Origin: a virus
Virus record (IMG/VR): IMGVR_UViG_3300037245_003526
Span: 88,297-152,296 of that record
Direction: 5' to 3' (one strand)
Length of the DNA stretch: 64,000 nt
The translations under genes were made by a program, and so were the position numbers. Below are positions 27,330 through 52,065 of the stretch, one piece after another. Numbering within the stretch: position 1 is the first letter of the stretch; each line of letters opens with the position of its first letter. The notes under the pieces are model-generated. The model had not been told where the DNA came from and searched no databases. It saw only the letters and a program-made list of their open reading frames with translations.

Positions 27330-28583
27330 GTGAAGAATTATAGCGAAAAATTCAATCAACGAGATATAAAAGAAGTTTCTTCTGTGGAAATAAAAAAACT
27401 AGGATTATCAACAGATGGTCTTAAACATGTTGAAAAGATAGAAGAACTTAGAAAATCACCATTAAATTTAGTTATAGCAGAATGTATCCAAACATGTGAA
27501 TTTACGCAAAATAAATTTAAAAAACAAAAATTAAAGAGAAGAAAAAAATATGTAATGGGTCTGGGTATTTATAAACAGTTATGGTATGATACTGCAAGTT
27601 GTAGAAAAATACTCAGACCTTCGACCGTAAAATTTAAAAATATTTATAAACCATATCAAGGTCAAGATTTAACTGATAAGAAAATATTGATAACTAGAAC
27701 TGGTGGAATAGGAGACTTATTATTCATCCTTCCAAATTTAATATATCTTAAAGAAGAATATCCAACTTGTAAAATCTATTTTGCGTGTGGTCCGCAATAT
27801 CAAGATATGGTTAATAATTGGGATTGTATTGATGAGATTTTAGATCAACCATTTCCATTTGCATTTTTAACAACTGCTCATTATCATGCAGCTTTCGAGG
27901 GTGTTATAGAAAGAGCAGAAGAAGCTAAATATACCAATGCCTATCGTCTATTTACAAATTGGTTGGGTCTTGAATTACCAGATGAAAAATTAATTCCTGT
28001 ACAAGAACCAAAACCTCTTTTAGTTGATATATGTAATAATTTTTTAACTGAAAGAGAAAAAGATGAAGGATTTATAACAATACAACTTAGAGCATCATCT
28101 CCAATTAGAACCCCACGACCTACCTTCTGGAAAAATATAATTGATGGTTTAGTAAAGAAAAATTATAATGTAATTATTACTGATACTCCTCATATGGAAA
28201 AATCAATAGATCAGTTTATAGAAACTTTAAATCCTCTTACTCAGGAAAGAACTAGAAATTTTTCTAAACAATCAGTATCACTTGATTATTCAATTGCACT
28301 TGTCTCACTTTCAAAATGTGCAATATCTCCTGATAGTTCTTTGATTCATATTGCTGCTAGTATGAAAATACCAGCTTTTGGTATATATGGTGCATTTCCT
28401 GGTAATATAAGATTATCTACTTATAAAAATGTTGACTGGATTGAACCAGTTGGAGTAAGGTGTTGTCCATGTTTTATTCATGGTCCAAACCCATGCAGAA
28501 ATTCAGTAGATGGGCACCCAACATGTTATGATAAAATTAATGTAACTGAATCATTAGAAAAAGTTGAAAGGTTAATAAAATGA
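27330..28583 (+). CDS. glycosyltransferase family 9 (heptosyltransferase-like)
   Basis: KKILITRTGGIGDLLFILPNLIYLKEEYP (GT9 N-terminal motif). GTG start per the ORF track. Confidence 0.5.
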   Translation: MKNYSEKFNQRDIKEVSSVEIKKLGLSTDGLKHVEKIEELRKSPLNLVIAECIQTCEFTQNKFKKQKLKRRKKYVMGLGIYKQLWYDTASCRKILRPSTVKFKNIYKPYQGQDLTDKKILITRTGGIGDLLFILPNLIYLKEEYPTCKIYFACGPQYQDMVNNWDCIDEILDQPFPFAFLTTAHYHAAFEGVIERAEEAKYTNAYRLFTNWLGLELPDEKLIPVQEPKPLLVDICNNFLTEREKDEGFITIQLRASSPIRTPRPTFWKNIIDGLVKKNYNVIITDTPHMEKSIDQFIETLNPLTQERTRNFSKQSVSLDYSIALVSLSKCAISPDSSLIHIAASMKIPAFGIYGAFPGNIRLSTYKNVDWIEPVGVRCCPCFIHGPNPCRNSVDGHPTCYDKINVTESLEKVERLIK

Positions 28584-29416
28584 TAAAAATCGCCATAACT
28601 GTGCGGAATCGTTTGGCAGTAACTAAAAAATGTATAGAAGCTATAAAACGGCATTCAAAACTTCCTCACCAAATATATGTTTATGATAATTTAACAAATT
28701 ATAAAGTTCAAGAACATTTTGATTATTTTAGAGATCTATGGATTGCTGGCGAAATTAAACAAGTAACGTTTAATACTAAAGAATCAACTTTTAATGCATT
28801 TTCTAAAGCATCTTCTTTAAATAGTTTTGGAAAAAATCATGAACAAGATCCTAATATTAAATCATATGATTTTATTTTATTTCTTGATAATGACGCTTTA
28901 GTTATGCCTGATTGGGATTTAAAATTATCTAAAGCTTGGGGAGTTGTTAAAAAAAGAAAAAAGGATAATATTTTAGTTATAGGTCAAGCAAGGGGTAGTG
29001 GTATTAAATATCCTGTTAAAAATAATACTGACAAATTAGGAGGTATGGCATATAGTCTTGGAAAATTAGGAGGAAGTTATTTCTGGTCTGTAAGACCAAC
29101 TTTCTTTAAAGATGTTGGTTATTTAGATTTATCTAAACTAGTTGGTAAGAATAAAAAACATGACCAAAATTATTGGACTCTTATGGATAGAAAGAATAAT
29201 GGACAACCATATATAGCTGGTTTAAAAGAAAAACTAGTTTTAGACTGTGGAGGTTTCGTTGGATCTATTTGTAACATATTAGCACAAGGAGAGAATAAAG
29301 AAAAATTAGAAAAAGCAAAACGTAAAGAGTCAGAGAAAAAAGTTGATGATTTATCATTTGAAGATTTTTATAAAAAGATGTTAAAAAAGAATGGTGTCTT
29401 AGAAAATATAACTTGA
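28580..29416 (+). CDS. glycosyltransferase (GT-A / GT2-like)
   Basis: IKIAITVRNRLAVTKKCIEAI N-terminus and an FLDNDAL DxD-like motif. Confidence 0.4.
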   Translation: MIKIAITVRNRLAVTKKCIEAIKRHSKLPHQIYVYDNLTNYKVQEHFDYFRDLWIAGEIKQVTFNTKESTFNAFSKASSLNSFGKNHEQDPNIKSYDFILFLDNDALVMPDWDLKLSKAWGVVKKRKKDNILVIGQARGSGIKYPVKNNTDKLGGMAYSLGKLGGSYFWSVRPTFFKDVGYLDLSKLVGKNKKHDQNYWTLMDRKNNGQPYIAGLKEKLVLDCGGFVGSICNILAQGENKEKLEKAKRKESEKKVDDLSFEDFYKKMLKKNGVLENIT

Positions 29417-29503
29417 GATAAAGAAACTAAAAATGTTTCTGTAGGAAACAAAAAAATCAAAAATAAAAAAGAAAGAGCTATTATTTGTACTCATGTAGGT
29501 GAA

Positions 29504-30367
29504 ATGGGTTGGGAAATTCTACGTTTTGCACCCCATGTTCTATGGAATAAAATTAATAAATATGGTGGTAATGTAAAATTAATAGTACAAACAAGACCTG
29601 ATAGGTTTGATCTATATGGACAACAAGCAGATATTTTAATACCTCTTAATATAAAGGGAGATTATTCAACTTTTAATTCTGATTGTTTTAGACTTACAGG
29701 ATTTCCAGAAAAAAAATATATGGGATTAATTGATAGAGTAAAAAGAGAATATGAAAGTAAATATAAAATAGTTGAAAATATTTATCCAATAGTAAAAGGA
29801 AGAAAATTTACTGAGAAAAATCAGTTTAGAAAAGATCAAATGCTTTTTGATTTTCTACCCAGGCATGAAAATCGAAAACTTATTTATGATACAATACCAA
29901 ATGATAAACCTTTAATAGTAATGGCGCCAAGATTTAGAAAATTTGGAAGAAAGAGAAATTGGCCACATTGGCAGAAATTTTATGATGAAATAGAACAAAA
30001 ATTAAATGATAAATATTATTTTATAATATGTGGAAAAAAACCAGAATACGTTCCTGATAAAAAAGATAGATTTTTTGATATCAATAAAATGATAGATCCA
30101 GAAATAACAGATTTATCTCTTATAGGTCTTACTATTGAAGCTTTAAAAAGATCTATTGTTTGTGTTGGAAGTCAAAGTGGAATACCAAATCTTTCAAATT
30201 TAGTTTGTATTCCAACAATTCAATGGGGTAATCAAAATAAAGCTCATTCTAAAACATATAATGTAAAAAATACAAAAACAATTTTTATTGATGATCCAGA
30301 ATTCAAAATAGAATCAAAGAAAATATTAACCGAACTAACAAACTTTTTAAATAAAAGGGGAAAATAA
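29504..30367 (+). CDS. glycosyltransferase family 9-like. The start is uncertain; see findings.
   Basis: GEMGWEILRFAPHVLWNKINKYGG parallels the motif of the 27330 gene. The paralogous motif extends in-frame upstream of the ATG. Confidence 0.4.
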   Translation: MGWEILRFAPHVLWNKINKYGGNVKLIVQTRPDRFDLYGQQADILIPLNIKGDYSTFNSDCFRLTGFPEKKYMGLIDRVKREYESKYKIVENIYPIVKGRKFTEKNQFRKDQMLFDFLPRHENRKLIYDTIPNDKPLIVMAPRFRKFGRKRNWPHWQKFYDEIEQKLNDKYYFIICGKKPEYVPDKKDRFFDINKMIDPEITDLSLIGLTIEALKRSIVCVGSQSGIPNLSNLVCIPTIQWGNQNKAHSKTYNVKNTKTIFIDDPEFKIESKKILTELTNFLNKRGK

Positions 30368-30368
30368 A

Positions 30369-30626
30369 ATGACTGAAAACGGATGGATTCAATCGTATAG
30401 ACTAAGACTTGAAAATCTAAATCGAACTCTTCAAGAATGTGTAATGAAACATACTTCTGATGGCTTTCTTGACCTTAATGAAACAATATTCCTTCTAAGA
30501 GGTTCTATACAAGAAATAGAAAAATTACATAAACAAAATGAAGTTCTTAAAAATGAAAACATAGATTTAAAAAATACCATAACTAAAGAAATGGAACAAT
30601 TAGTGGAAGCAGTTAGCGGAAGCTAA
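30369..30626 (+). CDS. coiled-coil hypothetical protein
   Basis: 85 aa. Confidence 0.35.
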   Translation: MTENGWIQSYRLRLENLNRTLQECVMKHTSDGFLDLNETIFLLRGSIQEIEKLHKQNEVLKNENIDLKNTITKEMEQLVEAVSGS

Positions 30627-30638
30627 AGGTGGTTAATT

Positions 30639-31637
30639 ATGTCTAATGAAGATGTCTTAAGAGGAATTGTTGATGGCGCTGATGCAGAAGCAGAAGCGGC
30701 ACAAGACGCTATAGATGCACTACAAGATCAAATTGATATACTTCAAGAAAAACAGGATGCTCTAAAATATGTTTTAGATAATACTAAATCTGACTTAGAA
30801 GAAGAAATTGATGCTACTTCTGTAATAAGTGTTTTTCATACTTATGATGATTACTATACAGGTACTCTAAGTAGTATTAATGATAATATTGTTGAATGGC
30901 AACTTTTTAAAAAAATATCAACTGAAGTAACACGTCATGATGATGATGAATTTATAATACAAGGTGATTATAATATAGCTGAATTTACTGGTAGTGGTCT
31001 TAGTACCATGACATATAACCCAGCTGGTGTTACTGCTAGTAGAATAGTTCATTACCGAGTTGAAATTGATGCAACCGATTCTTTTAAATGGTCAGAAAGA
31101 GGTGGTTTAAATTGGGAAGAAACGGGTGTTACTATTACAGGCGGTGCTCAAACTTTAAGTGATGGAGCTACTGTGACATTTGGATCTACTACTGGATATA
31201 CAATTGGAGATTATTGGGATTTCTGGTGGGTTCCTATTGGTTCAAGTGTTTATTTTGATACTACAGACTCAACAGCATTTATAGAAAGTACTGTTATTTC
31301 AGTAACTTTTGATACTACTAGTCAATCATATGTTGAAATAAATATGCCTGGTACTGATAAAATTCCAACACCTTTAACAGGTTTACTAGAATATATTTCA
31401 GAACCAAATGGAACAGGTTGGGATTATGATTCAACAACAAATACCCTTATTGATTTTATAGATGAGTTTGAATTTGCTAATCAATATATTCATACTCCAT
31501 TAGGAATAGATGGAACATATGGAACTAAAGATTTGATAGCAAGTTTAGGAACCGGTAAAATTATTCAACAAAATAATAAAAGTAATGCTATAGAATCAGA
31601 AACAAAATTAGTTACTTATGCATCACCACCATCGTAG
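30639..31637 (+). CDS. hypothetical protein (N-terminal coiled coil, beta-rich C-terminus; possible structural protein)
   Basis: 332 aa. Ala/Asp/Gln-rich heptads, then Thr/Gly/Ser-rich segments. Confidence 0.4.
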   Translation: MSNEDVLRGIVDGADAEAEAAQDAIDALQDQIDILQEKQDALKYVLDNTKSDLEEEIDATSVISVFHTYDDYYTGTLSSINDNIVEWQLFKKISTEVTRHDDDEFIIQGDYNIAEFTGSGLSTMTYNPAGVTASRIVHYRVEIDATDSFKWSERGGLNWEETGVTITGGAQTLSDGATVTFGSTTGYTIGDYWDFWWVPIGSSVYFDTTDSTAFIESTVISVTFDTTSQSYVEINMPGTDKIPTPLTGLLEYISEPNGTGWDYDSTTNTLIDFIDEFEFANQYIHTPLGIDGTYGTKDLIASLGTGKIIQQNNKSNAIESETKLVTYASPPS

Positions 31638-31646
31638 GAGGATAAT

Positions 31647-31994
31647 ATGCCAGGAATGGTTAGGTTAGGAGATAATTGGACTGGAACATGTGCTTTAGGT
31701 CATCCACCAGGACCTTATGGTCCATCATTACCTGGAGTTCCTGTACCTGTTACGGGAACAGTAATTGGTACAGCATCAACTTGTTTGGCAGATGGAATAA
31801 TGAAAGCTAAAGTTGGAATAGATATAGTTTTATCAAAATGTGGACATGTCGCTGTAATTGTAACCGGTGCGTTAAAATCACAAAGTGAAGGAGCTTTTCA
31901 AGCAGTAGTTGGTTCAATAGCTACTGCTGGAGTAGCACCTATAATTATAACGGGGGTGATAATTGATGGGTCAACAAAATGTCAAGCGAATTAA
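31647..31994 (+). CDS. PAAR-like spike-tip protein
   Basis: About 115 aa, Gly/Val/Ala-rich, with Cys and His in the pattern MVRLGD ... C ... H ... G.VI.TAS ... C.H. This is typical of PAAR repeats. Confidence 0.45.
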   Translation: MPGMVRLGDNWTGTCALGHPPGPYGPSLPGVPVPVTGTVIGTASTCLADGIMKAKVGIDIVLSKCGHVAVIVTGALKSQSEGAFQAVVGSIATAGVAPIIITGVIIDGSTKCQAN

Positions 31995-32150
31995 AAAAAG
32001 AAAGAGGCTAAAGGGTCTTGATATCAAAACTTTAGATCTAAGAGCCATGGAAATTAGTATGGAAAAGTTTTTAGGTATTAGAAGACCTATAAAACAAAAA
32101 AGAATTTTTCGTAAAGAGAGTGCTTATATCTCAAGATAGAAAGGATAACT

Positions 32151-33146
32151 ATGAGAATAATTTTTAATTTAATGAACTGTGGACTTGGGTCAAATGGGGG
32201 TTCACAAACAATAATCCTTTCAGCTAATACACTTAGTCAACTTGGTCATGAAGTATATATAATTGATTCAGGAAGACATAAATATAAGTGGGATGAAATT
32301 GAAGTTCCACATATAATTGTTAGAAAAAATAGAAATGTTCCTGATGCTGATGTTATTATTGCTACTGGATATAAAACAATAAGAGCTACTGTTAATTTAC
32401 CACCAAGATGTGGAAAAAAATTTACATGGTTAAGAGCTTGGGAAACATGGATGATGCCTGAAAAACAAATTATTGAAAAAGTTTTAAAAGCTCCTATAAC
32501 TCATCTAGTTAATTCAATATGCCTACAAAATAAATTAAAATCCTATGGATTTGAATCAGATATAGTAAGACCTGGAAATAGTTTTGAATTATTTAATCCT
32601 CCAAAACAGAATAGAGAGTCATATGATATTGTTATTGGTGGTCTATATCATACAAAACAGAATCATAGAAAGAGAAGTAATTGGATTATCGAAGTAGTTA
32701 AAGAATTACGTAAAGATAATAAAGCTGTAAAATTACAATTAATGGGAGCAGAAAATTTTCCTGGTGTAGCTAATGTCCCTCAAAGATATTCAAAATCTCC
32801 TAATAAAAAAGACAAAGAAATATTATTTCAAAAATGCAATATATGGTTAGCACCAACAGAAAGTGAGGGTCTACATATAGTACCTCAAGAAGCAATGTTA
32901 ACTGAATGTCCTGTTATAGGTACATCTGCTCCATTAAGTGGAATGCAAGATTATTTGATTCATAAAGAAACAGGATTAATGTCAGGTAATAATTTAAAAT
33001 CTTTTATTAATCAAGTTAAAATATTATCCAAAGATAAAAAGTTACGAAAAAAATTAGGAAAAGCTGGACGAAAGAAGATAATTAAATTAGGTAATAGAAA
33101 AGATAATATGATAAAACTAATTGAGTTATTGGAGGCTAAAATATGA
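32151..33146 (+). CDS. glycosyltransferase family 1 (GT4-like, GT-B fold)
   Basis: C-terminal ESEGLHIVPQEAMLTECPVIGT ... GL (E-x7-E-like motif). Confidence 0.5.
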   Translation: MRIIFNLMNCGLGSNGGSQTIILSANTLSQLGHEVYIIDSGRHKYKWDEIEVPHIIVRKNRNVPDADVIIATGYKTIRATVNLPPRCGKKFTWLRAWETWMMPEKQIIEKVLKAPITHLVNSICLQNKLKSYGFESDIVRPGNSFELFNPPKQNRESYDIVIGGLYHTKQNHRKRSNWIIEVVKELRKDNKAVKLQLMGAENFPGVANVPQRYSKSPNKKDKEILFQKCNIWLAPTESEGLHIVPQEAMLTECPVIGTSAPLSGMQDYLIHKETGLMSGNNLKSFINQVKILSKDKKLRKKLGKAGRKKIIKLGNRKDNMIKLIELLEAKI

Positions 33147-33724
33147 CATTTTATTTTGCTGAAACAATAGTATGTCCTGATGATCCTACAGCAACACCAA
33201 AACGAATACAAGAATATAGAGAATATTATAAAGTTAAATATGATATATGTAAAAAACAAAACCCAAAAGTTATTGCTGAAATAGGAGTGCGAGCAGGATA
33301 CTCAGCATGGTCTTTCCTTCAAGCTTGCCCTGATGCTGGTTATATAGGATTCGATGCTAATAATGGAACTCATGGAGGACAAGGTGGACAGAATGGAAAA
33401 TACTTTGAATGGGCAAAAAATATATTGAGAATATATAATCATAGATTAATAGAACTAGATACCCAAACAGTTGATTCATTAAATATACGAGAGGTTGATT
33501 TATTTCATGTTGATGGAGATCATACTTCAAAAGGTGTTCAACATGATTTAGATTTAGCATATAAAGTAATAAGTGATACGGGTTTAATACTTATAGATGA
33601 TATTACATATATAAAAACTGTTAGTGATGGTGTTAATAAATGGGTTGAAAAGATGGGAAATAAAATAACTTATGAATTTGTTAAATCATTACGAGGAGAA
33701 ATGCTTATTAGGAGGGATATATGA
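33143..33724 (+). CDS. SAM-dependent O-methyltransferase (TylF/CmcI-like)
   Basis: IAEIGVRAGYSAW ... VDGDH ... ILIDD. Confidence 0.45.
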   Translation: MTFYFAETIVCPDDPTATPKRIQEYREYYKVKYDICKKQNPKVIAEIGVRAGYSAWSFLQACPDAGYIGFDANNGTHGGQGGQNGKYFEWAKNILRIYNHRLIELDTQTVDSLNIREVDLFHVDGDHTSKGVQHDLDLAYKVISDTGLILIDDITYIKTVSDGVNKWVEKMGNKITYEFVKSLRGEMLIRRDI

Positions 33725-34326
33725 AAATTTTAGTTATAGGATTTCAAAGAAGTGGAACAACTTTATTACGAAGGTTAATAAATTTACATCCTGATGTACA
33801 AAGAATGATTCATGAAAAGAAAATTTTAAGATCAAAACAAATAGACAAAATAAAAAATGATAAACCTTTTACTTTTAGATCATGTACTATAGATACTAAG
33901 AAACACTGGGGTGAAAAAGTAGCATACTTTAGTAAAAATGGTTCAGATGTTTTAAGATATGTCAGATTATGGTTAAATACATTTAATAATAATTTTAGAA
34001 TAATACATATAATAAGAAATACAGAAGATGTTATAGACTCTAATTTCAGGAAATTTGGATTTAAAGAAGGTAAAGTAAGAAATCAACATACAACTTCTAT
34101 CAAAAATGTTAGTAAAAAATTACAAGAAAATTCTAGATATATGGAGATTACTTTTGAGGATTTAGTATTACATCCAGAAGAAATTTTAACTAATATATTT
34201 AAATTTTGTAAATTAAATCATTCTAAAGAAGTAGTACAAAAAATAAGTACTACTAAAAAAGGATTACGATATTTTGATAGTATTAACCCAGACAGAGCAT
34301 ATGCATATAAGAAAGGTAAAAAATGA
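33721..34326 (+). CDS. sulfotransferase
   Basis: 5'-PSB-like motif GFQRSGTTLL close to the N-terminus. About 200 aa. Confidence 0.45.
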   Translation: MKILVIGFQRSGTTLLRRLINLHPDVQRMIHEKKILRSKQIDKIKNDKPFTFRSCTIDTKKHWGEKVAYFSKNGSDVLRYVRLWLNTFNNNFRIIHIIRNTEDVIDSNFRKFGFKEGKVRNQHTTSIKNVSKKLQENSRYMEITFEDLVLHPEEILTNIFKFCKLNHSKEVVQKISTTKKGLRYFDSINPDRAYAYKKGKK

Positions 34327-35024: not shown

Positions 35025-35033
35025 GGAGATATA

Positions 35034-36909: not shown

Positions 36910-36915
36910 AAAAAT

Positions 36916-39778: not shown

Positions 39779-40323
39779 AGTTAATAGATGTTTATAAGGA
39801 AGCTTTAGCGACTATTACTAGTTATTGTGAAACACACAAAAATATATCTTTTTTGGATATTGGTGCTGATGAACCACAACCATTTATTTTGGAGTGCGTT
39901 AGTAGTTACGATATTGATTATAAAGTTATGGAATATGATAATAACATAAATGGAACTTATGTAATGAACGGAGACATATGTTATTGTTCACATATACCTG
40001 ACGAGAGTTATGATATAGTTTATTCACATAATGTGTTTGAGCATATAACTACACCGTGGTTGGCTGCAGAACAGTGTGTTAGGATAAATAAGATAGGGGG
40101 ACTAAACATACATATAGCACCTTTTGCATATGATTACCATAAATGTCCAGGTGATTATTTTAGATATACCCCGTCTGGTTTTAAATCAATGTTTGAGTTT
40201 TCCTGTAATATGAATGAGTTAATGTCAGGGTTTAATACTGGTAAAGTTGCTTGTAACGCCAATCAGAAAGTAGGTCGTTGGTTAGTTATGTATATTGGAA
40301 TGAAGAGGGACGTATCAAAATGA
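39775..40323 (+). CDS. SAM-dependent methyltransferase
   Basis: VYSHNVFEHITTPW ... INKIGG. Confidence 0.4.
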   Translation: MKLIDVYKEALATITSYCETHKNISFLDIGADEPQPFILECVSSYDIDYKVMEYDNNINGTYVMNGDICYCSHIPDESYDIVYSHNVFEHITTPWLAAEQCVRINKIGGLNIHIAPFAYDYHKCPGDYFRYTPSGFKSMFEFSCNMNELMSGFNTGKVACNANQKVGRWLVMYIGMKRDVSK

Positions 40324-41300
40324 AATCAAAACTATATTTGGGACCAATGAGTAAGAACATTGTAGATGCAGCGATAGAACTTAGTAATGAATCTGATATG
40401 TGTGTTGGTTTTTGCGCATCTAGACGCCAAATAGAATTTAATGGCGGGTATGTAAATGGTTGGATCACAAAATCTTTTACAAACTACGTTAGAGGTAAAG
40501 CTAACAACAGTATACTTGTTAGAGATCATGGTGGTCCAGGGCAAGGACAAGAGAATGATGATGGTATAGAATCATTTAAATATGATGCTTTATATTTTGA
40601 TATTATTCATATTGACCCATGGAAAAAATTTAAATCTATTGAAGAAGAAGTAGTTAAGACATCTGAGTATATAGATCTTTGTAATTCTATAAATCCTTAC
40701 TGTAAGTTTGAAGTAGGCACAGAGCAATCTATATGTGAATTATCTTCAGAAGAATTGTTTAGTTTTTTAAATGGATTGAAACGTAGGTTAGGACAAACTT
40801 TATTTAATAAAATAATATATGTGGTTATTCAATCAGGAACATCATTAGAAGAAGATACTAACACTGGTAAATATGATTCTGTTAAATTGAAAAGAATGAT
40901 TGATGTATGTAAAGGTTTTTCAGTACTTTCAAAAGAACACAACGGAGACTATTTATCATCTGATCTTATTAAAGAAAAGTTTTCTTTAGGTTTAGATTCA
41001 ATAAACATAGCACCAGAGTTTGGTGTTATAGAAACTCTATGTGTATTAGATAGAATAGATAATGAAGATTTACTTATAAAGTTACACTCTATGTGTATAG
41101 AATCGGGTAAATGGAAAAAATGGGTAAATGATGATTTTGATCCTAACAAAAATAAAAGAAGATTGATAAAAATATGTGGTCACTATATATTCTCAGAACC
41201 ACGATTTAAATCTTTAATTAAGAACAAAATATTTGATGGGATAGATGACGAAATTAAATCTAAAGTAAAAACTCGTATAAAAAATATATTAGGAGATTAA
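40320..41300 (+). CDS. hypothetical protein (weak GatZ/KbaZ-like sugar-bisphosphate aldolase subunit similarity)
   Basis: LGPMSKNIVDAAIE ... GGYVNGW ... VRDHGGPG. Start at 40320 (ATGA overlap). Confidence 0.25.
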   Translation: MKSKLYLGPMSKNIVDAAIELSNESDMCVGFCASRRQIEFNGGYVNGWITKSFTNYVRGKANNSILVRDHGGPGQGQENDDGIESFKYDALYFDIIHIDPWKKFKSIEEEVVKTSEYIDLCNSINPYCKFEVGTEQSICELSSEELFSFLNGLKRRLGQTLFNKIIYVVIQSGTSLEEDTNTGKYDSVKLKRMIDVCKGFSVLSKEHNGDYLSSDLIKEKFSLGLDSINIAPEFGVIETLCVLDRIDNEDLLIKLHSMCIESGKWKKWVNDDFDPNKNKRRLIKICGHYIFSEPRFKSLIKNKIFDGIDDEIKSKVKTRIKNILGD

Positions 41301-41304
41301 TTTT

Positions 41305-41910
41305 ATGGGTAATAAAAGGTATAAACCTACTAGATATTATATGTATAATCGAATAGAAAATTTTTTTAAAAAATACCAACATAAACCTGGTAAATGTTTA
41401 TTAGTTGGGGATTCTTTACGAGGTGTTGGAAATGGTAAAATAGAAATAAAGAACACAGCTATAATAGATATGCTTCCAAAGGGTTGTGATATTACAGCAC
41501 CATCATATCCAGACGTAGATATGATGTATATGCCGTATGATAAAAATACTTTTGATTATATAATATCAGATCAAGTTTTAGAACATGTTAGAAAACCATG
41601 GTTAGCTGCAGCAGAAATAGAACGTGTATTAAAACCTGATGGATGGGCAATTATTACCACATGTTTAATGAACTATATTCATGGAGTACCAGAAGATTAT
41701 TTTAGATTTACTCCAGATGGTTTAAAAGTATTATTTGAAAACCTTTCTTATATAGAACAAGTAGAAGGTTTTGGTAATCTAAACTTTATAACAAAAGCAT
41801 TAACTGGTAAATTCAAAGTACCCGTTAAACCAGGAACTCCTTTAGAAAAAGAAGTTATGATTAACGATAATAAAAACTTATATTTAACATGGATCATAGG
41901 AAGAAAATAA
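41305..41910 (+). CDS. SAM-dependent methyltransferase
   Basis: ISDQVLEHVRKPW ... LKPDG. Confidence 0.4.
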   Translation: MGNKRYKPTRYYMYNRIENFFKKYQHKPGKCLLVGDSLRGVGNGKIEIKNTAIIDMLPKGCDITAPSYPDVDMMYMPYDKNTFDYIISDQVLEHVRKPWLAAAEIERVLKPDGWAIITTCLMNYIHGVPEDYFRFTPDGLKVLFENLSYIEQVEGFGNLNFITKALTGKFKVPVKPGTPLEKEVMINDNKNLYLTWIIGRK

Positions 41911-41920
41911 AGGAGAATTA

Positions 41921-42505
41921 ATGGACTACATCGAAACCAACATTGAAAATACTAAGAAGTTAATGAAAAATATTAACGAAAAAAGATATAGACAGCTTAA
42001 AAAAAATAGATATATTCCTATAATTGAATTAATGGAAAAATATGTTGATAAATCAGGTCCTTTGCTTGATATAGGAATTAGAGAAGGTGCATTTCTTAAA
42101 GTATTAAGAGATGAAGGATTTACTGATTTATATGGTGTTGATATATACGAAGAAGGAGTTCAACAAGCTATTAAAAATGGATTTGATTGTCAAGTTTCAG
42201 ATGCTATGGATCTACAAATTAGAATGAAATTTAATATAGTTACTATATCTCATGTAATAGAACATTGTCCAGATATAAATAAAGTAGTAGATAATATATA
42301 CGATCTATTAAATCCAAAAGGTGTTTTATATGTGGAAGTACCTAAACAGAAGAAACAAAAAATACCTACAAAAGATGGTCACTACTTTTGCTTTTCGACT
42401 CTAAAAGAACTCCATTCATTTTTTCCGGAGGATAAATGGGAATTGTTAGAATTGACAAAAAATAAAGAAAGTGGACGTCTTAAAATATTAGTAAGGAAAA
42501 TATAA
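41921..42505 (+). CDS. SAM-dependent methyltransferase
   Basis: LDIGIREGAF ... VDIY ... ISHVIEHCPD. Confidence 0.4.
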   Translation: MDYIETNIENTKKLMKNINEKRYRQLKKNRYIPIIELMEKYVDKSGPLLDIGIREGAFLKVLRDEGFTDLYGVDIYEEGVQQAIKNGFDCQVSDAMDLQIRMKFNIVTISHVIEHCPDINKVVDNIYDLLNPKGVLYVEVPKQKKQKIPTKDGHYFCFSTLKELHSFFPEDKWELLELTKNKESGRLKILVRKI

Positions 42506-43185
42506 TGAATAATGGTATTGTATATATAGTATTTAAAAAACATAAGGGTGTAGATCATATAAAAGAAGTTATACAATCTGCAAGAGCAGTTAAAAATATT
42601 CATAAAAAACTTAATATAACATTATTTACAGATTCTAAAAATATTAATGAAAATTGTTTTGATAATATAAAAATTATTCCAATTAATAATACCAGAGAAA
42701 AACAAAATTACTTATATGATTCTCCATATGATTATACATTATATTTAGATAGTGATACTAAAGTAGTAAATCCTATTGAAGATATTTTTAAAATTTTAGA
42801 TAGATTTGATATAGCTGCTTGTTTTGATCATGCTAGAAAAGATCCTAAAAAATCTAAAGTTTGGGAAGACTATGCAAAAATACCAAGCTCATTTTCCGAA
42901 TTTGCTGGAGGTGTTATTTTATTTAAAAAATCTCCTGTAGTTGAAAGCTTCTTTAAAGTATGGAGAGTTAACTATGGACTATGGAAAAAAGCATCTGGTA
43001 AATTAAATGATCAACCATCATTTAGAGTTTCATTATGGCAATGTTCAGATTTGAAAGTTTATACTCTTCCCCCTGAATACAATTTAAGGACACAAGAAAA
43101 AAGAGATAAATTTATTATTAATCCTGTAATTCTTCATTGGCATAAAATGTATATGAATGTTAAAGGAACCCCACAAAAATTTTAG
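42505..43185 (+). CDS. hypothetical protein (possible GT-A glycosyltransferase)
   Basis: YLDSDTKVV DxD motif. Confidence 0.3.
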   Translation: MNNGIVYIVFKKHKGVDHIKEVIQSARAVKNIHKKLNITLFTDSKNINENCFDNIKIIPINNTREKQNYLYDSPYDYTLYLDSDTKVVNPIEDIFKILDRFDIAACFDHARKDPKKSKVWEDYAKIPSSFSEFAGGVILFKKSPVVESFFKVWRVNYGLWKKASGKLNDQPSFRVSLWQCSDLKVYTLPPEYNLRTQEKRDKFIINPVILHWHKMYMNVKGTPQKF

Positions 43186-43194
43186 GGAGAATAA

Positions 43195-43854
43195 ATGATT
43201 ATAGATGTGTTAGTTAATAGTTGTGCTAGAGTTGATCTTCTTGAAAAATCAATATCTACATTTAGGAAACATATTAAGACTGATGAACATGAGTTTAGAT
43301 GGGTCATAGTCGAAGATAAAGTTAATGATCCTAAACGTCAAAAAATTGGTGAAAGATGGATATTTGGTAATGGAAATTTATTTGATAAAATTACTTTTTT
43401 GGGAAAAAAAGCAGGACCAGGTTATTGGTGGGCAGAAATAATTAAACATTGTGAATCAGATTTTCATATTCATTTAGAAGATGATTGTAAATTTATCAAT
43501 GATATTTATATAGATCCAATAATTGAAATAATGGAGGTTCAAAGTAATATTGTTGAAATTATATTTAGAAGAGATACAGCAAAAAAGAATAATAATAAAT
43601 TAAAAATATTTGATCTTAAATTAACTGAAATGGATTTATTATCAGTTGCTTCAGGTATTTTTAATACAAAAAATGTAATAAAAATTATTGATAAAATAGG
43701 TTGGAAAAAACAATTACATGAAGCAAAAAACTTAACTCATACATCTAAAAAAATGGGATTAAGAAAATTCATATTAGATCATAATAAAGTACATTATATT
43801 CATGTAGGACAAAAGAAATGTTATAGAAAAGGAAAATGGATTGAAACTAAATAA
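43195..43854 (+). CDS. glycosyltransferase family 2-like
   Basis: MIIDVLVNSCARVDLLEKSI N-terminus and an HLEDD motif. Confidence 0.35.
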   Translation: MIIDVLVNSCARVDLLEKSISTFRKHIKTDEHEFRWVIVEDKVNDPKRQKIGERWIFGNGNLFDKITFLGKKAGPGYWWAEIIKHCESDFHIHLEDDCKFINDIYIDPIIEIMEVQSNIVEIIFRRDTAKKNNNKLKIFDLKLTEMDLLSVASGIFNTKNVIKIIDKIGWKKQLHEAKNLTHTSKKMGLRKFILDHNKVHYIHVGQKKCYRKGKWIETK

Positions 43855-44125
43855 TTGTGAAATTTGTAAAAGATCATTTCCTTCTTTAGATACACATCAT
43901 ATACATAGTCTTAGTTTAGATGGTGTAAATAAAGAATGGAATAAATGTTATATTTGTCCATCGTGTCATAGGTTAGTTCACATAGGTGAAATAATACTTG
44001 AAGGAAGATTTAGAACAACTAAAGGTAATACATTAATTTTTAGAAATAAAGAAGAAGAATCAATAACACAATTTGAGGATCCTCGTGTGTGGTTAATTGG
44101 TAAGGAGAAAAAAGATGAAAAGTAA
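43841..44125 (+). CDS. HNH endonuclease
   Basis: CEIC ... THHIHS ... CPSCHRLVH. Apparent TTG start that overlaps the upstream gene. Confidence 0.5.
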   Translation: MKLNNCEICKRSFPSLDTHHIHSLSLDGVNKEWNKCYICPSCHRLVHIGEIILEGRFRTTKGNTLIFRNKEEESITQFEDPRVWLIGKEKKDEK

Positions 44126-45326
44126 AAATATCATAATATTTGGTGGAGATGGTTTTTGTGGATGGCCAACAGCTCTTTATTTATCAAAAGCAGGTTATAA
44201 TATTACTATTGTAGATAACTTATCTAGACGAAAAATAGATGTTGAATTAGAATGTCAATCTCTTACTCCCATTGCTTCTATTACAAATCGTAGAGCTATG
44301 TGGCAATCAAGGTCAGGTAATGTTATTCATTATGCTAATATAGATGTCCATGATAATTTTCATAGACTTCTTACTATGATTAATGAAATTAAACCTTTAG
44401 CGGTCATTCATTTTGCTGAACAGAGGGCAGCACCCTATTCAATGAAGAGTCCTTGGCATAAGAGATATACGGTTAATAATAATTTAAATGCTACTAATAA
44501 TATATTGGATGCGATTGTTGAATCAGGTTTAGATATTCATGTTGTTCATTTAGGAACAGCTGGTTATTATGGTTATTCTTCAGTAGGAATGAAAATTCCT
44601 GAAGGGTATCTTAAAGTCAAAGTTGATGTTGATGGAGAAGAAAAAGATCTTGAAATAATGTATCCTCCAAATCCAGGATCTATATATCATTTAACTAAAT
44701 GTCAAGATGCTTTGTTTTTTCATTATTATAATAAGAATGATGCTTTAAGAATAACTGATTTACATCAAGGTATTGTTTATGGATGTCAAACTGATGAAAC
44801 AATAATACATGAAGATTTAATTAATCGTTTTGACTATGATGGTGATTATGGAACTGTATTAAATAGGTTTGCTATACAAGCTGCTATAGGTCATCCATTA
44901 ACTATATATGGTACAGGTGGACAAACAAGAGCATTTATTCATATTTCAGATACAGTTAAATGTATTAAATTAGCTATTGAAAATCCTCCAGCAGAAGGTG
45001 ATCGTGTTAGAGTTTTAAATCAAGCTGCTGAATGTTTAAATGTACATGATTTAGCAGACACAATAAAAAGACTTACTGGAGCAGAAATTAGATATTATAA
45101 AAATCCTAGAAATGAAGATCCTAAAAATGAGTTAAAATTTGCTAATGAAGGTTTTAAAAGTTTAGGATGGGAACCTAAATTATTAGAATATGCATTAATA
45201 GAAGATGTTATGAAAATTGCTCATAAATGGAAAGATAGAGTTGATATTGATAAAGTAATACCTACTTCATTATGGGATAAAAATAAAGAGGTTGATAAAA
45301 TAGGAGCATTTATACCAGAAAAATAG
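44115..45326 (+). CDS. UDP-sulfoquinovose synthase (SQD1)-like SDR
   Basis: IIIFGGDGFCGWPTALYLSKAGYNITIVDNLSRR closely parallels the SQD1/Agl3 N-terminus (GGDGYCGW). Start at 44115 behind RBS AAGGAG. Confidence 0.5.
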   Translation: MKSKNIIIFGGDGFCGWPTALYLSKAGYNITIVDNLSRRKIDVELECQSLTPIASITNRRAMWQSRSGNVIHYANIDVHDNFHRLLTMINEIKPLAVIHFAEQRAAPYSMKSPWHKRYTVNNNLNATNNILDAIVESGLDIHVVHLGTAGYYGYSSVGMKIPEGYLKVKVDVDGEEKDLEIMYPPNPGSIYHLTKCQDALFFHYYNKNDALRITDLHQGIVYGCQTDETIIHEDLINRFDYDGDYGTVLNRFAIQAAIGHPLTIYGTGGQTRAFIHISDTVKCIKLAIENPPAEGDRVRVLNQAAECLNVHDLADTIKRLTGAEIRYYKNPRNEDPKNELKFANEGFKSLGWEPKLLEYALIEDVMKIAHKWKDRVDIDKVIPTSLWDKNKEVDKIGAFIPEK

Positions 45327-45337
45327 GAGACTAAAAA

Positions 45338-46318
45338 ATGGCGAATTGGTTAATAACAGGTGGGTGTGGTTTTATAGGATTGAATTTAGTTAAGGAGTTA
45401 GCAGATGAAGGAGGACATGAAATAAGAGTAGTTGATAATATGTCATTCGGTAAAGCTGATGACCTTAAATATGTTTGTGAATATAAACATACACATCCAA
45501 ATAATTTTAAAGAACCTGTAGTAGAATTAGTAGAAGTTGATATTAAAGATAAATTTTATATGAATCAAGTAATGGAAGATATTGATTATGTAGTTCATTT
45601 AGCAGCTATAAGCGGAGTTAGACTTTCAGTTGATGATCCCACAACCAGCTTTACAACAAATGTTGATGGTACTTTTAATTTACTTGAAGCAGCTAGAAAA
45701 AATAATATTAAAAAGTTTATATTTGCTTCAAGTGGCGCTGGAGTTGGAGATCATAAACCACCAATTCATGAAGATTTACCAGCAAGACCAGTATCTCCAT
45801 ATGGGGCAACTAAATTAGCTGGTGAAGGTTTATGTACTTCTTATTATCATTCATTCGGACTTGAAACTACTTCATTAAGATTTAGTAATGTTTATGGTCC
45901 TTTTTCTCATCGTAAAGAAAGTCTTGTAGCAAAATTAGTAAAACGAGTATTAGATAATAAAACTTTTAATATATATGGTGATGGTAATCAAACAAGAGAT
46001 TTTGTATATGTAGATGATTTAGTTAATGCAATAAAACTTTGTGTTTCTACAGAAGATATTGGAGGAGAAATATATCAATTATGTACAGGTAATGAATCTT
46101 CAATAAATTTCATTATTGGTGAAATAATACATATACTTAAAAAGAGAGCGTTTGATGATTTTAAACTTGAAATAGTAGAAGAAAAAATTGGAGATTTAAA
46201 AACAAATTGGGCAGATAATACAAAAATATATAATCACTTAGGATGGTCTCCGCAAGTTAAATTAGATGAAGGTCTTGAAAATACTATAGGTTGGTTAATC
46301 GAAAATTATAAAAAGTAG
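45338..46318 (+). CDS. NAD-dependent nucleotide-sugar epimerase/dehydratase
   Basis: WLITGGCGFIGLNLV Rossmann motif and YGATK catalytic motif. Confidence 0.55.
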   Translation: MANWLITGGCGFIGLNLVKELADEGGHEIRVVDNMSFGKADDLKYVCEYKHTHPNNFKEPVVELVEVDIKDKFYMNQVMEDIDYVVHLAAISGVRLSVDDPTTSFTTNVDGTFNLLEAARKNNIKKFIFASSGAGVGDHKPPIHEDLPARPVSPYGATKLAGEGLCTSYYHSFGLETTSLRFSNVYGPFSHRKESLVAKLVKRVLDNKTFNIYGDGNQTRDFVYVDDLVNAIKLCVSTEDIGGEIYQLCTGNESSINFIIGEIIHILKKRAFDDFKLEIVEEKIGDLKTNWADNTKIYNHLGWSPQVKLDEGLENTIGWLIENYKK

Positions 46319-52019: not shown

Positions 52020-52065
52020 GTTTTTATTTTAAAATTGTGTAACAAAATAATGAAAGGGTATTAAA

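Follow-up and report, generated by a model that had tools for sequence, protein, structure and literature searches.

Gene content and origin of the island

We have analyzed a window of 64,000 nucleotides of viral DNA in which positions 27330 to 46318 form a tight block of 24 plus-strand ORFs, with intergenic gaps between -46 and +156 nt and most genes overlapping or at most 12 nt apart. Families were called with the Pfam curated cut-offs and with NCBIfam, PHROGs and PDB searches, and family matches to glycan, methyl or sulfur enzymes were obtained in 19 of the 24. These ORFs are given here together with the giant gene upstream and a further glycosyltransferase gene downstream.

18652..26292, +, giant 2546-aa protein, Ser/Thr-rich with repeats; candidate virion fibre and possible acceptor
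27330..28583, +, GT9-family glycosyltransferase, 417 aa, heptosyltransferase-like, Cys-rich C-terminus (Pfam Glyco_transf_9, 27.8 bits, cut-off 22)
28580..29416, +, weakly GT2-like conserved 278-aa protein (Pfam Glycos_transf_2, E 0.0047, under cut-off)
29504..30367, +, conserved 287-aa protein with orthologues only
30369..30626, +, 85-aa coiled-coil protein (weak coiled-coil Pfam matches only)
30639..31637, +, 332-aa virion-associated protein, long N-terminal helix and inserted beta domain
31647..31994, +, divergent PAAR-domain protein, 115 aa (transitive profile search)
32151..33146, +, GT4 (GT1-type) glycosyltransferase, 331 aa (Pfam Glycos_transf_1, E 6e-13)
33143..33724, +, class I SAM methyltransferase, O-methyltransferase-like (Pfam Methyltransf_24, E 2.4e-15)
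33721..34326, +, PAPS-type sulfotransferase, 201 aa (Pfam Sulfotransfer_3, E 1e-15; Sulfotransfer_1, E 1.6e-13)
34323..35024, +, GT8-like/nucleotide-sugar transferase-like protein, 233 aa (Pfam Glyco_transf_8, E 8e-4, under cut-off)
35034..35810, +, DUF7796 protein (Pfam, 32.9 bits, cut-off 27)
35785..36909, +, sugar 3-C-methyltransferase-like enzyme (Pfam Methyltransf_23)
36916..37629, +, fusion of HAD phosphatase and cupin of the mannose-6-P isomerase C-terminal type (Pfam)
37629..39197, +, fusion of sugar-/alcohol-phosphate nucleotidyltransferase and APH/choline-kinase-like kinase (Pfam NTP_transferase)
39197..39778, +, TylF-type O-methyltransferase (Pfam TylF, 38.9 bits, cut-off 23)
39775..40323, +, SAM methyltransferase (Pfam Methyltransf_11, 29.8 bits, cut-off 21.2)
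40278..41300, +, 326-340-aa protein (faintly GatZ/KbaZ-like, Pfam E 2.4e-4, under cut-off)
41305..41910, +, SAM methyltransferase (Pfam Methyltransf_11, E 1.4e-10)
41921..42505, +, SAM methyltransferase (Pfam Methyltransf_23, E 1.6e-20)
42505..43185, +, highly conserved GT8-like protein, 226 aa (Pfam Glyco_transf_8, E 7.5e-4, under cut-off)
43195..43854, +, conserved 219-aa protein with orthologues
43841..44125, +, HNH endonuclease ORF that overlaps the start of SQD1 (Pfam HNH, 23.5 bits, cut-off 21.4)
44097..45326, +, UDP-sulfoquinovose synthase (SQD1/SqdB) homologue (PDB, NCBIfam, motifs)
45338..46318, +, UDP-hexose 4-epimerase-like extended SDR (Pfam Epimerase, E 5e-61)
48796..49818, +, second GT4 glycosyltransferase (Pfam Glyco_trans_1_4, 33.6 bits, cut-off 27)

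The core of the island recurs in seven or more further, independent phage contigs of 15-304 kb, among them L003 (304 kb), L004/L042 (168 kb), L038 (149 kb), L037 (87 kb), L043 (74 kb) and L040 (19 kb), which come from different assemblies. The recurrent core consists of the GT9 gene, the genes at 28580 and 29504, GT4, the sulfotransferase, SQD1, the SDR and the second GT4, the last of which lies beyond the end first assigned to the island, yet belongs to the conserved set (79% identity in L004, 52% in L038 and 47% in L043). Replication genes (Dda helicase and clamp loader) are located upstream of the island, and QueC, six tRNAs, a tmRNA and RtcB downstream. The GC content is about 0.25-0.35 over the window and the positive GC skew is continuous across the island. 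The uniform composition, the phage genes on both sides and the same arrangement in independently assembled phage contigs indicate that the island is phage DNA, and on these grounds a remnant of a host LPS locus on a misassembled contig, the refuting case named in the preliminary description, was rejected. The island is an inherited part of a very large uncultured bacteriophage genome, and the best reading is that of a vertically inherited set in a lineage of uncultured tailed phages with large genomes (at least 150-300 kb) of low GC.

Sulfur enzymes

The SQD1 homologue matched the Arabidopsis SQD1 structure 1qrr over its full length (E 2.9e-93) and the NCBIfam UDP-sulfoquinovose synthase model NF041015 with E 2.8e-98 (329 bits, under the cut-off of 575). 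The motifs GGDGFCGW, T154 and Y197-H198-x-x-K201 are present, and Thr154, Tyr197, His198 and Lys201 align with T145, Y182, H183 and K186 of SQD1; the SQD1-like gene proposed earlier is a strong homologue whose catalytic residues are intact. In the database the gene is called from ATG 44115, giving 403 aa, and the protein P0001 (403 aa, from a 244,552-bp contig) is 100% identical to it. In a NJ tree the phage copies formed one clade, separate from the bacterial and cyanobacterial SqdB. The HNH ORF that overlaps the start of this gene is kept at the same position in L003 and L004 and is probably a homing element.

The sulfotransferase is above the Pfam cut-offs and carries the 5'-PSB (RSGTT, residue 10) and 3'-PB (RNTEDVIDS, residue 99) motifs. 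Sulfotransferases are found as well in L037, L038 and L043, the last with two copies. In L037 and L043 an additional gene for an APS kinase adjoins the island, where it would supply PAPS.

Glycosyltransferases, epimerase and methyltransferases

The GT9 protein had WaaF (1psw, E 6e-5) as its top PDB match and reached NCBIfam heptosyltransferase II with E 5e-11, under the cut-off; its orthologues are 74% identical in L042, 56% in L038 and 52% in L040. Two GT9 genes had been described, but the second one, 29504, gave no match in Pfam, NCBIfam, PHROGs or PDB nor any BLASTP similarity to the first; it has orthologues at 41-73% identity in L003, L004/L042, L038, L040 and L043. The GT2-like assignment of 28580 stays below the Pfam threshold (E 0.005, rounded), its orthologues being 70% (L042), 52% (L038) and 53% (L040) identical. 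The GT1/GT4 assignment of 32151 exceeds the cut-off, with orthologues throughout the related loci at 33-72%. Both GT8-like genes are conserved, 34323 in L003, L004 and L037 (44-69%) and 42505 at 77-78% in L003 and L004 and 44% in L037. The gene at 43195 (62-75% in L003 and L004, 45% in L037) gave no match in the family searches and, judged by eye only, looks GT-A-like with an EDD motif.

As had been proposed for a GalE-like enzyme, the SDR is closest to solved UDP-hexose 4-epimerases (top PDB relatives UDP-Glc 4-epimerase 4zrm, UDP-GlcA 4-epimerase 6zl6 and WbgU, with UDP-GalNAc 4-epimerase among the relatives); it has the SSG and YGATK motifs and lacks the T-D-E dehydratase motif. Leaving L001 out of the count, an SDR is at most three genes from SQD1, and mostly directly adjacent, in every related phage locus with that flank read.

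The expected minimum of six SAM methyltransferases was borne out by Pfam (33143, 35785, 39197, 39775, 41305 and 41921, all above cut-off). The identity of 33143 is 75-78% in L003 and L004, and Methyltransf_24 genes adjoin SQD1 in L038, L040 and L043. The orthologues of 41305 are at 42-50% in L003, L004 and L037, and those of 41921 at 90%, 71% and 42%, respectively.

Among the related loci, the 6.3-kb module 35034-41300 is specific to the window. Its first gene, which matches PHROG 13607, has no counterpart in any related locus. The C-methyltransferase-like gene 35785 is indeed nearest to solved sugar 3-C-methyltransferases (D-mycarose 3-C-methyltransferase 4rv9, E 8e-6, then TcaB9, 5t6b) and has an N-terminal Cys cluster (residues 10, 13, 51, 54 and 56). 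Three Pfam families above cut-off (HAD_PNKP, MannoseP_isomer and Cupin_2) agree with the HAD-cupin fusion. In the fusion 37629 the nucleotidyltransferase part stood, with GxGxR at residue 11 and LicC CTP:phosphocholine cytidylyltransferase as the best PDB match (E 2e-4), and the APH part was sub-threshold (E 0.002) though its catalytic loop HGDxxxxN is present (HGDFISDN, residue 387). The last ORF of the module likely starts at ATG 40320 and the PDB search with it gave nothing useful.

Giant protein and the PAAR gene pair

The preliminary description assigned CBM repeats to the 2546-aa protein, for which neither Pfam nor PDB gave a match. Its N-terminal 400 aa or so are conserved, with 78% identity to the L042 giant and 40% to a 491-aa protein of L038, and the hypervariable, Ser/Thr-rich and repeat-containing remainder is unmatched. 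This is a pattern typical of receptor-binding fibres, which makes the protein a candidate for one. The giant or N-domain protein precedes GT9, 28580, 29504 and GT4 in this same order in the window, L042 and L038; the L038 homologue is the 491-aa protein, without the Ser/Thr-rich part. No recognisable structural family was found in it or in the ORFs at 12.8-18.6 kb, and a structural neighbourhood is therefore something we infer.

The 85-aa protein has orthologues in L004 (53%) and L038 (39%). The 332-aa protein, previously a possible fibre, was not recognised as such, but it contains, inserted at residues ~116-195, a mobile beta domain of about 80 aa that occurs in structural proteins of virions and in baseplate proteins. 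The C-terminus of a Baseplate_J protein shares 58% identity with this domain, which is present also in a beta-helix and a gp36-like protein and matches a protein annotated as 'virion structural protein' in the Cellulophaga phages phi38:1 and phi40:1. The AF2 model of the 332-aa protein had a mean pLDDT of 56, with about 75-91 per ten-residue block in the mobile domain (residues ~120-200), and no Foldseek match. The 115-aa protein gave no direct Pfam, PHROG or PDB match and a poor AF2 model (pLDDT 49). A profile from four homologues reached proteins of about 100 aa (E 5e-9 to 9e-4), 6 of the 10 scanned being above the Pfam PAAR_motif cut-off, and Cys and His residues are conserved; by this transitive search only, the PAAR-like assignment holds for a divergent member. 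Since the pair is present only in the window and L004 and missing from the same site in L003, L038 and L040, it is an insertion in one sub-lineage and does not belong to the conserved genes of the island, and the argument that had been drawn from its enclosure is weaker than it seemed.

Proposed pathway and acceptor

No transmembrane helix was predicted in any island enzyme, and no ORF (plus strand, at least 80 aa, from 12 kb onward; minus strand, at least 120 aa) had more than two hydrophobic segments. Outside the island, the ORFs concerned had a single such stretch each, at the N-terminus or further inside, and the all-beta PAAR protein had two. Thus the scanned ORFs include no membrane protein of the Gtr, Wzx, Wzy or WaaL kind, unlike in classical O-antigen conversion, which had rightly been disfavoured. 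The enzyme families being largely as first assigned, the island contains about twenty soluble enzymes, whose expected joint product is a sugar chain with methyl, sulfate and sulfonate groups. We found no instance of this chemistry in deposited phage genomes.

The sequences show the enzyme families with their intact catalytic motifs, the lack of membrane proteins, the phage setting and the conserved, syntenic gene set; we infer the substrates, the order of the steps and, above all, the acceptor. The pathway would be wholly soluble and cytoplasmic. The SQD1 homologue would convert UDP-glucose and host sulfite to UDP-sulfoquinovose, and the adjacent 4-epimerase would interconvert UDP-hexoses. In this phage only, the nucleotidyltransferase-kinase, HAD-cupin, 3-C-methyltransferase and TylF O-methyltransferase of the module may provide a further nucleotide sugar or phospho-alcohol donor, probably branched and methylated. 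The GT9, GT4 and GT8-/GT2-like transferases would join the sugars into a defined oligosaccharide (the island has no polymerase gene), to be decorated by five O-/N-type SAM methyltransferases and the PAPS sulfotransferase. The predicted product is an anionic, heavily methylated glycan that carries sulfonate as well as sulfate groups.

The likeliest acceptors would be virion proteins, with the giant fibre-like protein immediately upstream as leading candidate. That the island serves cytoplasmic glycosylation of virion proteins, perhaps of this hypervariable fibre, is our tentative reading, to which we give a little less than an even chance. The virion-type protein and the PAAR tip protein inserted within the island in two phages speak for it; counted against it are the absence of this pair from three related loci, the retention of GT9 in L038 beside a shortened giant homologue, and L037, where the island passes directly into the replication genes clamp loader, PolA and RNR. 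The main rival, in which the enzymes would modify the LPS core or a surface glycan of the host, we regard as somewhat less likely. Bacterial LPS-core (waa) loci have the same family mix of GT9, GT4, GT8-like and GT2-like transferases, and this explanation is a live one because the closest cellular SQD1 relative among the neighbourhoods read (L044) is located in a bacterial ABC-transporter-type (Wzm/Wzt) surface-polysaccharide cluster. With virion proteins as acceptors, the particles would exit the cell with a phage-specified glycan coat. A precedent exists in mycobacteriophages, in which capsid and tail-tube subunits are glycosylated by phage-encoded enzymes (summarised in PMC12619734).

Gene content and phage origin of the island

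The island (27330-46318 of the window) is made up of 24 plus-strand ORFs, named here by their start coordinate and arranged head to tail with intergenic gaps of -46 to +156 nt, the widest being located ahead of 32151 (156 nt) and 29504 (87 nt). Scanning for promoters yielded 141 sites, where chance alone predicts 139.6, and no convincing internal terminators were detected. Families were assigned with the curated cut-offs of Pfam.

Enzyme families of the glycan island
27330, plus strand, GT9, Pfam above cut-off
28580, plus strand, GT2-like, Pfam E 0.005, sub-threshold
32151, plus strand, GT4/GT1, Pfam above cut-off
33143, 35785, 39197 (TylF), 39775, 41305 and 41921, plus strand, SAM methyltransferase domains, Pfam above cut-off
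33721, plus strand, PAPS-type sulfotransferase, Pfam above cut-off
34323 and 42505, plus strand, GT8-like, Pfam E ~8e-4, sub-threshold
35034, plus strand, DUF7796, Pfam above cut-off
36916, plus strand, HAD-cupin fusion, Pfam above cut-off
37629, plus strand, nucleotidyltransferase, Pfam above cut-off
43841, plus strand, HNH endonuclease, Pfam above cut-off
44097 and 45338, plus strand, extended SDRs, Pfam above cut-off

Pfam and motif evidence agree essentially with the enzymes named in the preliminary description, and the sulfur and methyl chemistry proposed there is borne out by the families. The exception is the ORF at 29504-30367, which had been taken for a second GT9 and was unmatched in every library, showing no similarity to 27330 either; ORF 43195 also lacked a family match.

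The upstream flank carries a Dda-like helicase and a clamp loader, and the downstream flank QueC, six tRNAs, a tmRNA and RtcB. The GC content of the window is 0.25-0.35, and the positive GC skew is continuous from ~14 kb to 46 kb. We have found the island in several other phage contigs, all of them reached solely via SQD1 homologues (SQD1 being UDP-sulfoquinovose synthase); scans of IMG/VR and JGI contigs with single GT8-like or GT4 proteins or with small alignments gave no close relatives.

Phage contigs with related loci
L003, 304 kb, NCBI GCA_024449895.1
L004/L042, 168 kb, NCBI GCA_024449895.1
L038, 149 kb, JGI 3300017989 (ENA twin, L039)
L037, 87 kb, JGI 3300066525
L043, 74 kb, JGI 3300033144
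L040, 19 kb, ENA
L001, IMG/VR contig

The common core consists of the GT9, 28580, 29504, the GT4, the sulfotransferase, SQD1, the SDR epimerase, a 229-aa ORF (47580) and a second GT4 (48796), with QueC downstream in several of the contigs. A second tier (34323, 41305, 41921, 42505 and 43195) is common to the window, L003, L004 and L037. The stretch 35034-41300 (DUF7796, C-methyltransferase, HAD-cupin, nucleotidyltransferase-kinase, TylF, a Methyltransf_11 protein and a 340-aa unknown) has no counterpart in any related locus and, by this comparison, is an accessory module specific to the window. The HNH ORF (43841-44125) overlaps the start of SQD1 and is kept there in L003 and L004, and a NUMOD3 endonuclease lies between the GT9 and GT2-like genes of L038 (4270-5136); homing elements seem to target the island repeatedly.

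Every enzyme family found is typical of bacterial surface-glycan loci, as would be expected if a host LPS or polysaccharide locus had been misassembled onto phage DNA, or if the island were a recent non-functional acquisition, but we find such an origin hardly credible. The GC content and GC skew run on into the flanks, the catalytic motifs are intact, and independent JGI, NCBI, ENA and Logan assemblies agree in the order of the genes and in having phage genes on either side. Besides, the conservation between phages is similar in the island (42-90%) and in the flanking phage genes (38-83%). Given the phage flanks, the independent syntenic contigs and the separate clade of the phage SQD1 (see next section), misassembly or a host remnant is refuted as far as sequence data can do so. 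The view that the island is phage-encoded stands, on the basis of the flanking phage genes and of a gene order shared by independent contigs.

The SQD1 homologue and the other enzymes

The product of 44097-45326 aligned over its full length to Arabidopsis SQD1 (1qrr, E 2.9e-93; query 10-395, chain 2-384). NF041015 was by far the best NCBIfam model (329 bits, E 2.8e-98, below the equivalog cut-off of 575 bits), the runner-up being GalE with 66 bits. By residue counting along the alignment, T154, Y197, H198 and K201 correspond to Thr145, Tyr182, His183 (SQD1-specific) and Lys186 of SQD1, and a NAD-binding GGDGFCGW is found at residue 16. The catalytic Thr, Tyr-His and Lys are all present in this enzyme, which had been described beforehand only as SQD1-like. 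The public gene call starts at ATG 44115 and gives a 403-aa protein (P0001) on a 244,552-bp JGI contig. Cellular homologues are spread over many phyla and are 55-68% identical to the phage enzyme; in a crude neighbour-joining tree without support values, the six phage SQD1 formed one clade, apart from cyanobacterial, alphaproteobacterial and other cellular SqdB. The phage enzyme is therefore like Arabidopsis SQD1 and bacterial SqdB in its full-length alignment and catalytic residues but differs in belonging to a clade of its own and in being located in a glycan-assembly island, not beside a lipid sulfoquinovosyltransferase.

The bacterial SQD1 with 68% identity to the phage enzyme belongs to a Wzm/Wzt cluster (L044; GCA_030639835.1, DAOWKO010000021.1), where its neighbours are methyltransferases, GT8, GT11, FdtA and DegT, which implies that sulfoquinovose is part of a bacterial surface polysaccharide. 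Bacterial ABC-transporter clusters of this kind are similar to the island in combining SQD1 with methyltransferases, GT8/GT4 and SDR epimerases, but they have the Wzm/Wzt exporters, whereas the phage island is devoid of any membrane component. In a Paracoccus locus, the gene after sqdB encodes what looks, on visual inspection, like a PAPS reductase. The homologue of L001 (IMGVR_UViG_3300005512_004867, 9995-12253) is a 752-aa ORF with a ~350-aa insert that splits the catalytic motif exactly (..SIYHL / C...intein...VWCGN / SKCQD..), with Cys as its first residue, LAGLIDADG-like blocks inside and Ser as the residue right after the insert, probably an intein that interrupts the active site of this phage enzyme. 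A 9-kb contig binned as Candidatus Pacearchaeota (JAFCDK010000029.1) carries an SQD1 just outside the phage clade, together with a methyltransferase 30% identical to 41921, and could be of viral origin, placed wrongly in an archaeal MAG.

Among the remaining enzymes, the GT9 scored 27.8 bits with Glyco_transf_9 (cut-off 22) and matched WaaF (1psw, E 6e-5), while the NCBIfam matches of the GT4 were generic. The sulfotransferase (Sulfotransfer_3, 59 bits; Sulfotransfer_1, 51 bits) has both PAPS-binding motifs, RSGTT (5'-PSB) and RNTEDVIDS (3'-PB). The nearest solved relatives of 45338 are UDP-glucose, UDP-glucuronate and UDP-GalNAc 4-epimerases, and the protein lacks the Thr-Asp-Glu motif of 4,6-dehydratases. 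In the case of 35785 they are sugar 3-C-methyltransferases (4rv9, E 8e-6, then TcaB9, E 0.26), with matches in register over residues 42-236 and a cluster of five N-terminal Cys; the Pfam Zn and C-terminal domains of 3-C-methyltransferases of the TylC3/TcaB9 type were not detected. The nucleotidyltransferase half of 37629 is most like LicC, weakly (E 2e-4), and a kinase loop, HGDxxxxN, is found in its C-terminal half. L037 (12154-12528) and L043 (12920-13294) have the gene of a 124-aa APS kinase two to four genes downstream of their SQD1, which fits a real need for PAPS and suggests that some members of the lineage supply their own PAPS for the sulfotransferase; the 64-kb window has no APS kinase.

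The PAAR protein, its partner and the giant protein

The 115-aa protein coded at 31647 gave no Pfam, PHROG or PDB match, even at E 10, and there was no direct match to the Pfam PAAR_motif (PF05488) at E <= 10 for any of four family members. A profile of its four homologues, compared with 1.8 billion representative proteins, recovered 18 matches of ~100 aa (E 1e-46 to 9e-4, under a threshold of E <= 1e-3). Since six of the ten matches scanned pass the PAAR_motif cut-off, the 115-aa protein is best described, by this profile link, as a putative divergent PAAR protein. The AlphaFold (AF2) model is all-beta and poor (pLDDT 49). The protein shares with the PAAR tips of T6SS spikes and contractile phage tails the size, the three-fold repeat pattern, conserved Cys/His and the profile-level relationship to PAAR_motif proteins; on the other hand, it is too divergent for a direct Pfam match and its gene lies inside a glycan island beside that of a 332-aa partner, with no recognizable spike or hub gene adjoining; no spike gene was identified nearby.

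The 332-aa partner (30639-31637) starts with a long helix and carries an insert of ~80 aa (residues ~116-195), a beta domain with 58% identity to the C-terminal end of a Baseplate_J protein. The same domain was found in a beta-helix protein, a gp36-like protein and annotated virion structural proteins of Cellulophaga phages, these last being the sole pointer to the host, a hint of Bacteroidota. A shorter homologue of the partner is free of the insert. The fold search of the whole protein (AlphaFold pLDDT 56) gave only Foldseek matches with E >= 0.008 and TM <= 0.2, which were discarded. From these domain relationships, we regard the pair as probably virion-associated. The beta domain itself (consensus FTGxGLNDMT...VEIDATGTPDTFKWS..GG...TGV.ITG.AQ.LS.GVTVTF.ATTGHT.GD.W.F) is widespread and mobile, terminal in baseplate-J, beta-helix and tail-fibre-like proteins, and has no Pfam family. 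The pair is present in the window and in L004 and absent at the same position in L003, L038 and L040, which means that it does not belong to the conserved content of the island. Thus, a divergent PAAR is indeed embedded there, as the preliminary description proposed, but the argument built on it is weakened.

The island is preceded by a 2546-aa protein in the window (18652-26292), by one of at least 1123 aa in L042 and by a 491-aa homologue in L038. The giant protein had no Pfam or PDB match, so that neither library supports its earlier label of CBM-repeat protein. Only the N-terminal ~400 aa (~1-430) are conserved (78% in L042, 40% in L038), the remainder being unrelated between phages; such a pattern is usual in receptor-binding fibres. 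Its sequence includes a Ser/Thr-rich repeat zone at ~420-650 (36% S+T), six of its 21 N-x-S/T sequons within residues 501-600, and long modules that recur, e.g., 'VQVTGSQSAETS...' three times.

Possible acceptors of the glycan

In none of the island enzymes did a hydrophobic 19-mer reach the threshold, none has a predicted transmembrane helix, and there was no multi-spanning membrane protein among the plus-strand ORFs of at least 80 aa from 12 kb onwards or the minus-strand ORFs of at least 120 aa. Hence, the scanned ORFs include no flippase, polymerase, ligase, Gtr-type protein or initiating phosphoglycosyl transferase, and classical O-antigen conversion (GtrA/GtrB/GtrC, Wzy or Oac modules) is excluded, in agreement with what had been anticipated. 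The pattern points instead to a defined oligosaccharide assembled at or in the cytoplasm. UDP-glucose and sulfite would give UDP-sulfoquinovose, the epimerase would interconvert UDP-hexoses, and seven to nine transferases would build the chain, to which the methyltransferases would attach methyl groups on oxygen (and, in this phage, one on carbon) and the sulfotransferase a PAPS-derived sulfate.

As acceptor we tentatively favour the proteins of the virion, giving this proposal somewhat less than an even chance. The island follows the giant protein or a homologue with the conserved N-terminus in the window, L042 and L038, virion genes are inserted into it in two phages, and it is a stable trait of the lineage, not a hypervariable accessory. 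There is a precedent in mycobacteriophages of the Che8 type (Freeman et al. 2023, as cited in PMC12619734 and PMC12801897), where soluble phage transferases, coded by two or three genes beside the structural genes, are reported to modify capsid and tail proteins in the cytoplasm. Phage-encoded soluble transferases are common to both systems, but ours has about twenty genes and is known from genes alone, in a different host phylum and with no evidence of homology. The specific idea that the GT9 is a protein heptosyltransferase of the TibC/Aah type acting on the Ser/Thr repeats of the giant protein was rejected, as no TibC appeared among the PDB matches and L038 keeps the GT9 without the repeats. 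More doubtful is that the particles are coated, e.g., on the giant fibre, with a phage-made glycan bearing sulfoquinovose, sulfate esters and O- and C-methyl sugars. If they were, the searchable literature would have no earlier case of a sulfonated glycan on a bacterial virus. Still more speculatively, such an anionic and methylated coat could mimic sulfated algal polysaccharides and engage the glycan-capture machinery of marine Bacteroidota hosts.

The transferases might also act at the cytoplasmic face on lipid A-core or undecaprenyl-linked intermediates of the host, whose MsbA/Lpt or Wzm/Wzt would export a sulfo- and methyl-decorated LOS or polysaccharide, so that the cell surface (LPS core or polysaccharide) is remodelled during infection; superinfection exclusion, keeping progeny off debris or avoiding grazers are possible benefits. 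We see this as possible, although on balance unlikely. The waa enzymes of the LPS core are soluble and free of membrane helices, and the combination of GT9, GT4, GT8-like, GT2-like and kinase genes is one that we take to resemble waa core loci. The best matches of the GT9 are with WaaF and WaaC, which are heptosyltransferases of LPS, and not with those of proteins. Of the cellular SQD1 neighbourhoods read, the closest (L044) is a polysaccharide cluster of the ABC-transporter type, and the island of L037 adjoins early-type replication genes. The cell-wall gene sets of cyanomyoviruses have been read in the same way (PMC12801897). Against host remodelling, the island is a conserved and syntenic trait of a divergent lineage rather than a hypervariable, host-specific one, and at least seven transferases imply de novo assembly and not the addition of a side branch. 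Neither an initiating phosphoglycosyl transferase nor an exporter or a ligase is encoded, no integrase was seen in the window (annotated in part), and in a lytic infection the old LPS would be replaced by new only slowly.

Two narrower roles have less to recommend them. SQD1/SqdB is the committed enzyme of sulfoquinovosyl-diacylglycerol (SQDG) synthesis and the match is strong; with a GT4 or GT8-like transferase, the families to which the known SQDG synthases belong (SQD2/SqdX and SqdD, respectively), it could make this sulfolipid, which would replace phospholipid and free phosphate for phage DNA, the rest of the island being unrelated neighbours. There is one report of a UDP-sulfoquinovose synthase carried by a virus as an auxiliary metabolic gene (PMC7785012). 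We consider a sulfolipid product quite improbable, however, as SQD1 is always accompanied in these phages by the sulfotransferase, methyltransferases and several transferases, its clade is separate from cyanobacterial and alphaproteobacterial SqdB, and the phage GT4 and GT8-like genes match none but generic models (in NCBIfam for the GT4). Around 30 cellular sqdB loci, no gene up to 6 kb away resembled a phage transferase (E <= 0.01), a comparison made without a verified SqdX/SqdD positive control. Even more improbable is that the transferases glycosylate modified bases of the phage DNA to evade restriction, even though glycan decoration of DNA by phage glycosyltransferases is on record (cited in PMC12619734) and a 7-deazaguanine set (QueC and others) is located 4 kb downstream. 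The island showed neither a hydroxymethylase nor any comparable gene for base activation, a sulfotransferase, SQD1, C-methyltransferase and six methyltransferases have no precedent in that role, and the GT families would differ from those of the known DNA glycosyltransferases.

Comparison with glycan genes of other phages

Large glycan-gene islands are already known in phages; what is new here is one with a conserved core of sulfoquinovose, sulfation and methylation. Among 50,697 deposited phage genomes there was no true SQD1 (the best matches were generic epimerases, with 26-28% identity). The whole island gave no megablast match to the same records, and tblastn with the PAAR protein, the GT9, the sulfotransferase, a 666-aa ORF and the N-terminus of the giant protein found nothing. 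The only viral UDP-sulfoquinovose synthase in the searchable literature is a lone auxiliary metabolic gene of a Mu-like virus from the Cariaco Basin (PMC7785012). Like ours, it is a virus-borne SQD1 homologue discussed in connection with glycosylation, but it is a single gene in a small element, against a conserved pathway of 19 kb in huge phages.

Marine cyanomyoviruses of more than 200 kb have up to 22 cell-wall synthesis genes, 13 of them glycosyltransferases, that have been read without tests as host-surface modification (PMC12801897). The cell-wall/LPS gene islands of P-SSM2, S-SCSM1 and S-SCSM2R are also found in large (>200 kb) aquatic phages of lytic type and contain at least a dozen glycosyltransferases plus nucleotide-sugar epimerases, with function unproven (PMC12801897). 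No sequence relationship was found (SQD1 at most 28% identical to epimerases, nothing for the GT9 and the sulfotransferase), and the window differs in adding sulfonate and sulfate chemistry and six methyltransferases as a conserved, syntenic lineage trait. The 'moraphages', aquatic jumbo phages with genomes of up to 307 kb and Bacteroidota hosts, have four core glycosyltransferase groups (PMC12619734).

Among the glycan islands of large aquatic phages, this one is unusually tractable because it is conserved and syntenic across a lineage, entirely soluble and contains a diagnostic SQD1, whose product, a sulfosugar with a C-S bond, is easily detected by mass spectrometry. Straightforward mass spectrometry would separate the competing hypotheses. 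Were the product on virions, protein glycosylation directed by phages would no longer be confined to a few mycobacteriophages but would include environmental huge phages, and viral glycobiology would gain sulfonation and sulfation. Were it on the cell, this would be a tangible example of host-surface rebuilding by a lytic phage. Either acceptor would place phages in the marine cycle of sulfoquinovose and organosulfur.

Other features of the window

The region ~4 kb downstream of the island (50702-53269) contains QueC (TIGR00364, E 2e-33), also present past the island in L003, L004, L038 and L043, where its neighbours resemble dGTP diphosphohydrolase, MazG and deoxyribosyltransferase; it is probably a conserved 7-deazaguanine DNA modification module. 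Six tRNAs (Trp, Ile-tat, two Asn, Gln and Ser) and a tmRNA (tag ADNLAFAAADDYATAALAA, Rfam 132.6 bits) are found at 56176-58841 and 62029-62403, RtcB at 59351-60475, and a NUDIX and cytidylyltransferase-like protein at 63048-63971. Right after the island, a convergent minus-strand ORF (46387-47232) has an N-terminal signal or anchor, a faint LamG-like region and an acidic (D-E-P-x)n repeat. It had no tblastn match in any related locus; L003 and L004 have minus-strand DUF4114 proteins in its place, and L004 also a similar signal-bearing protein.
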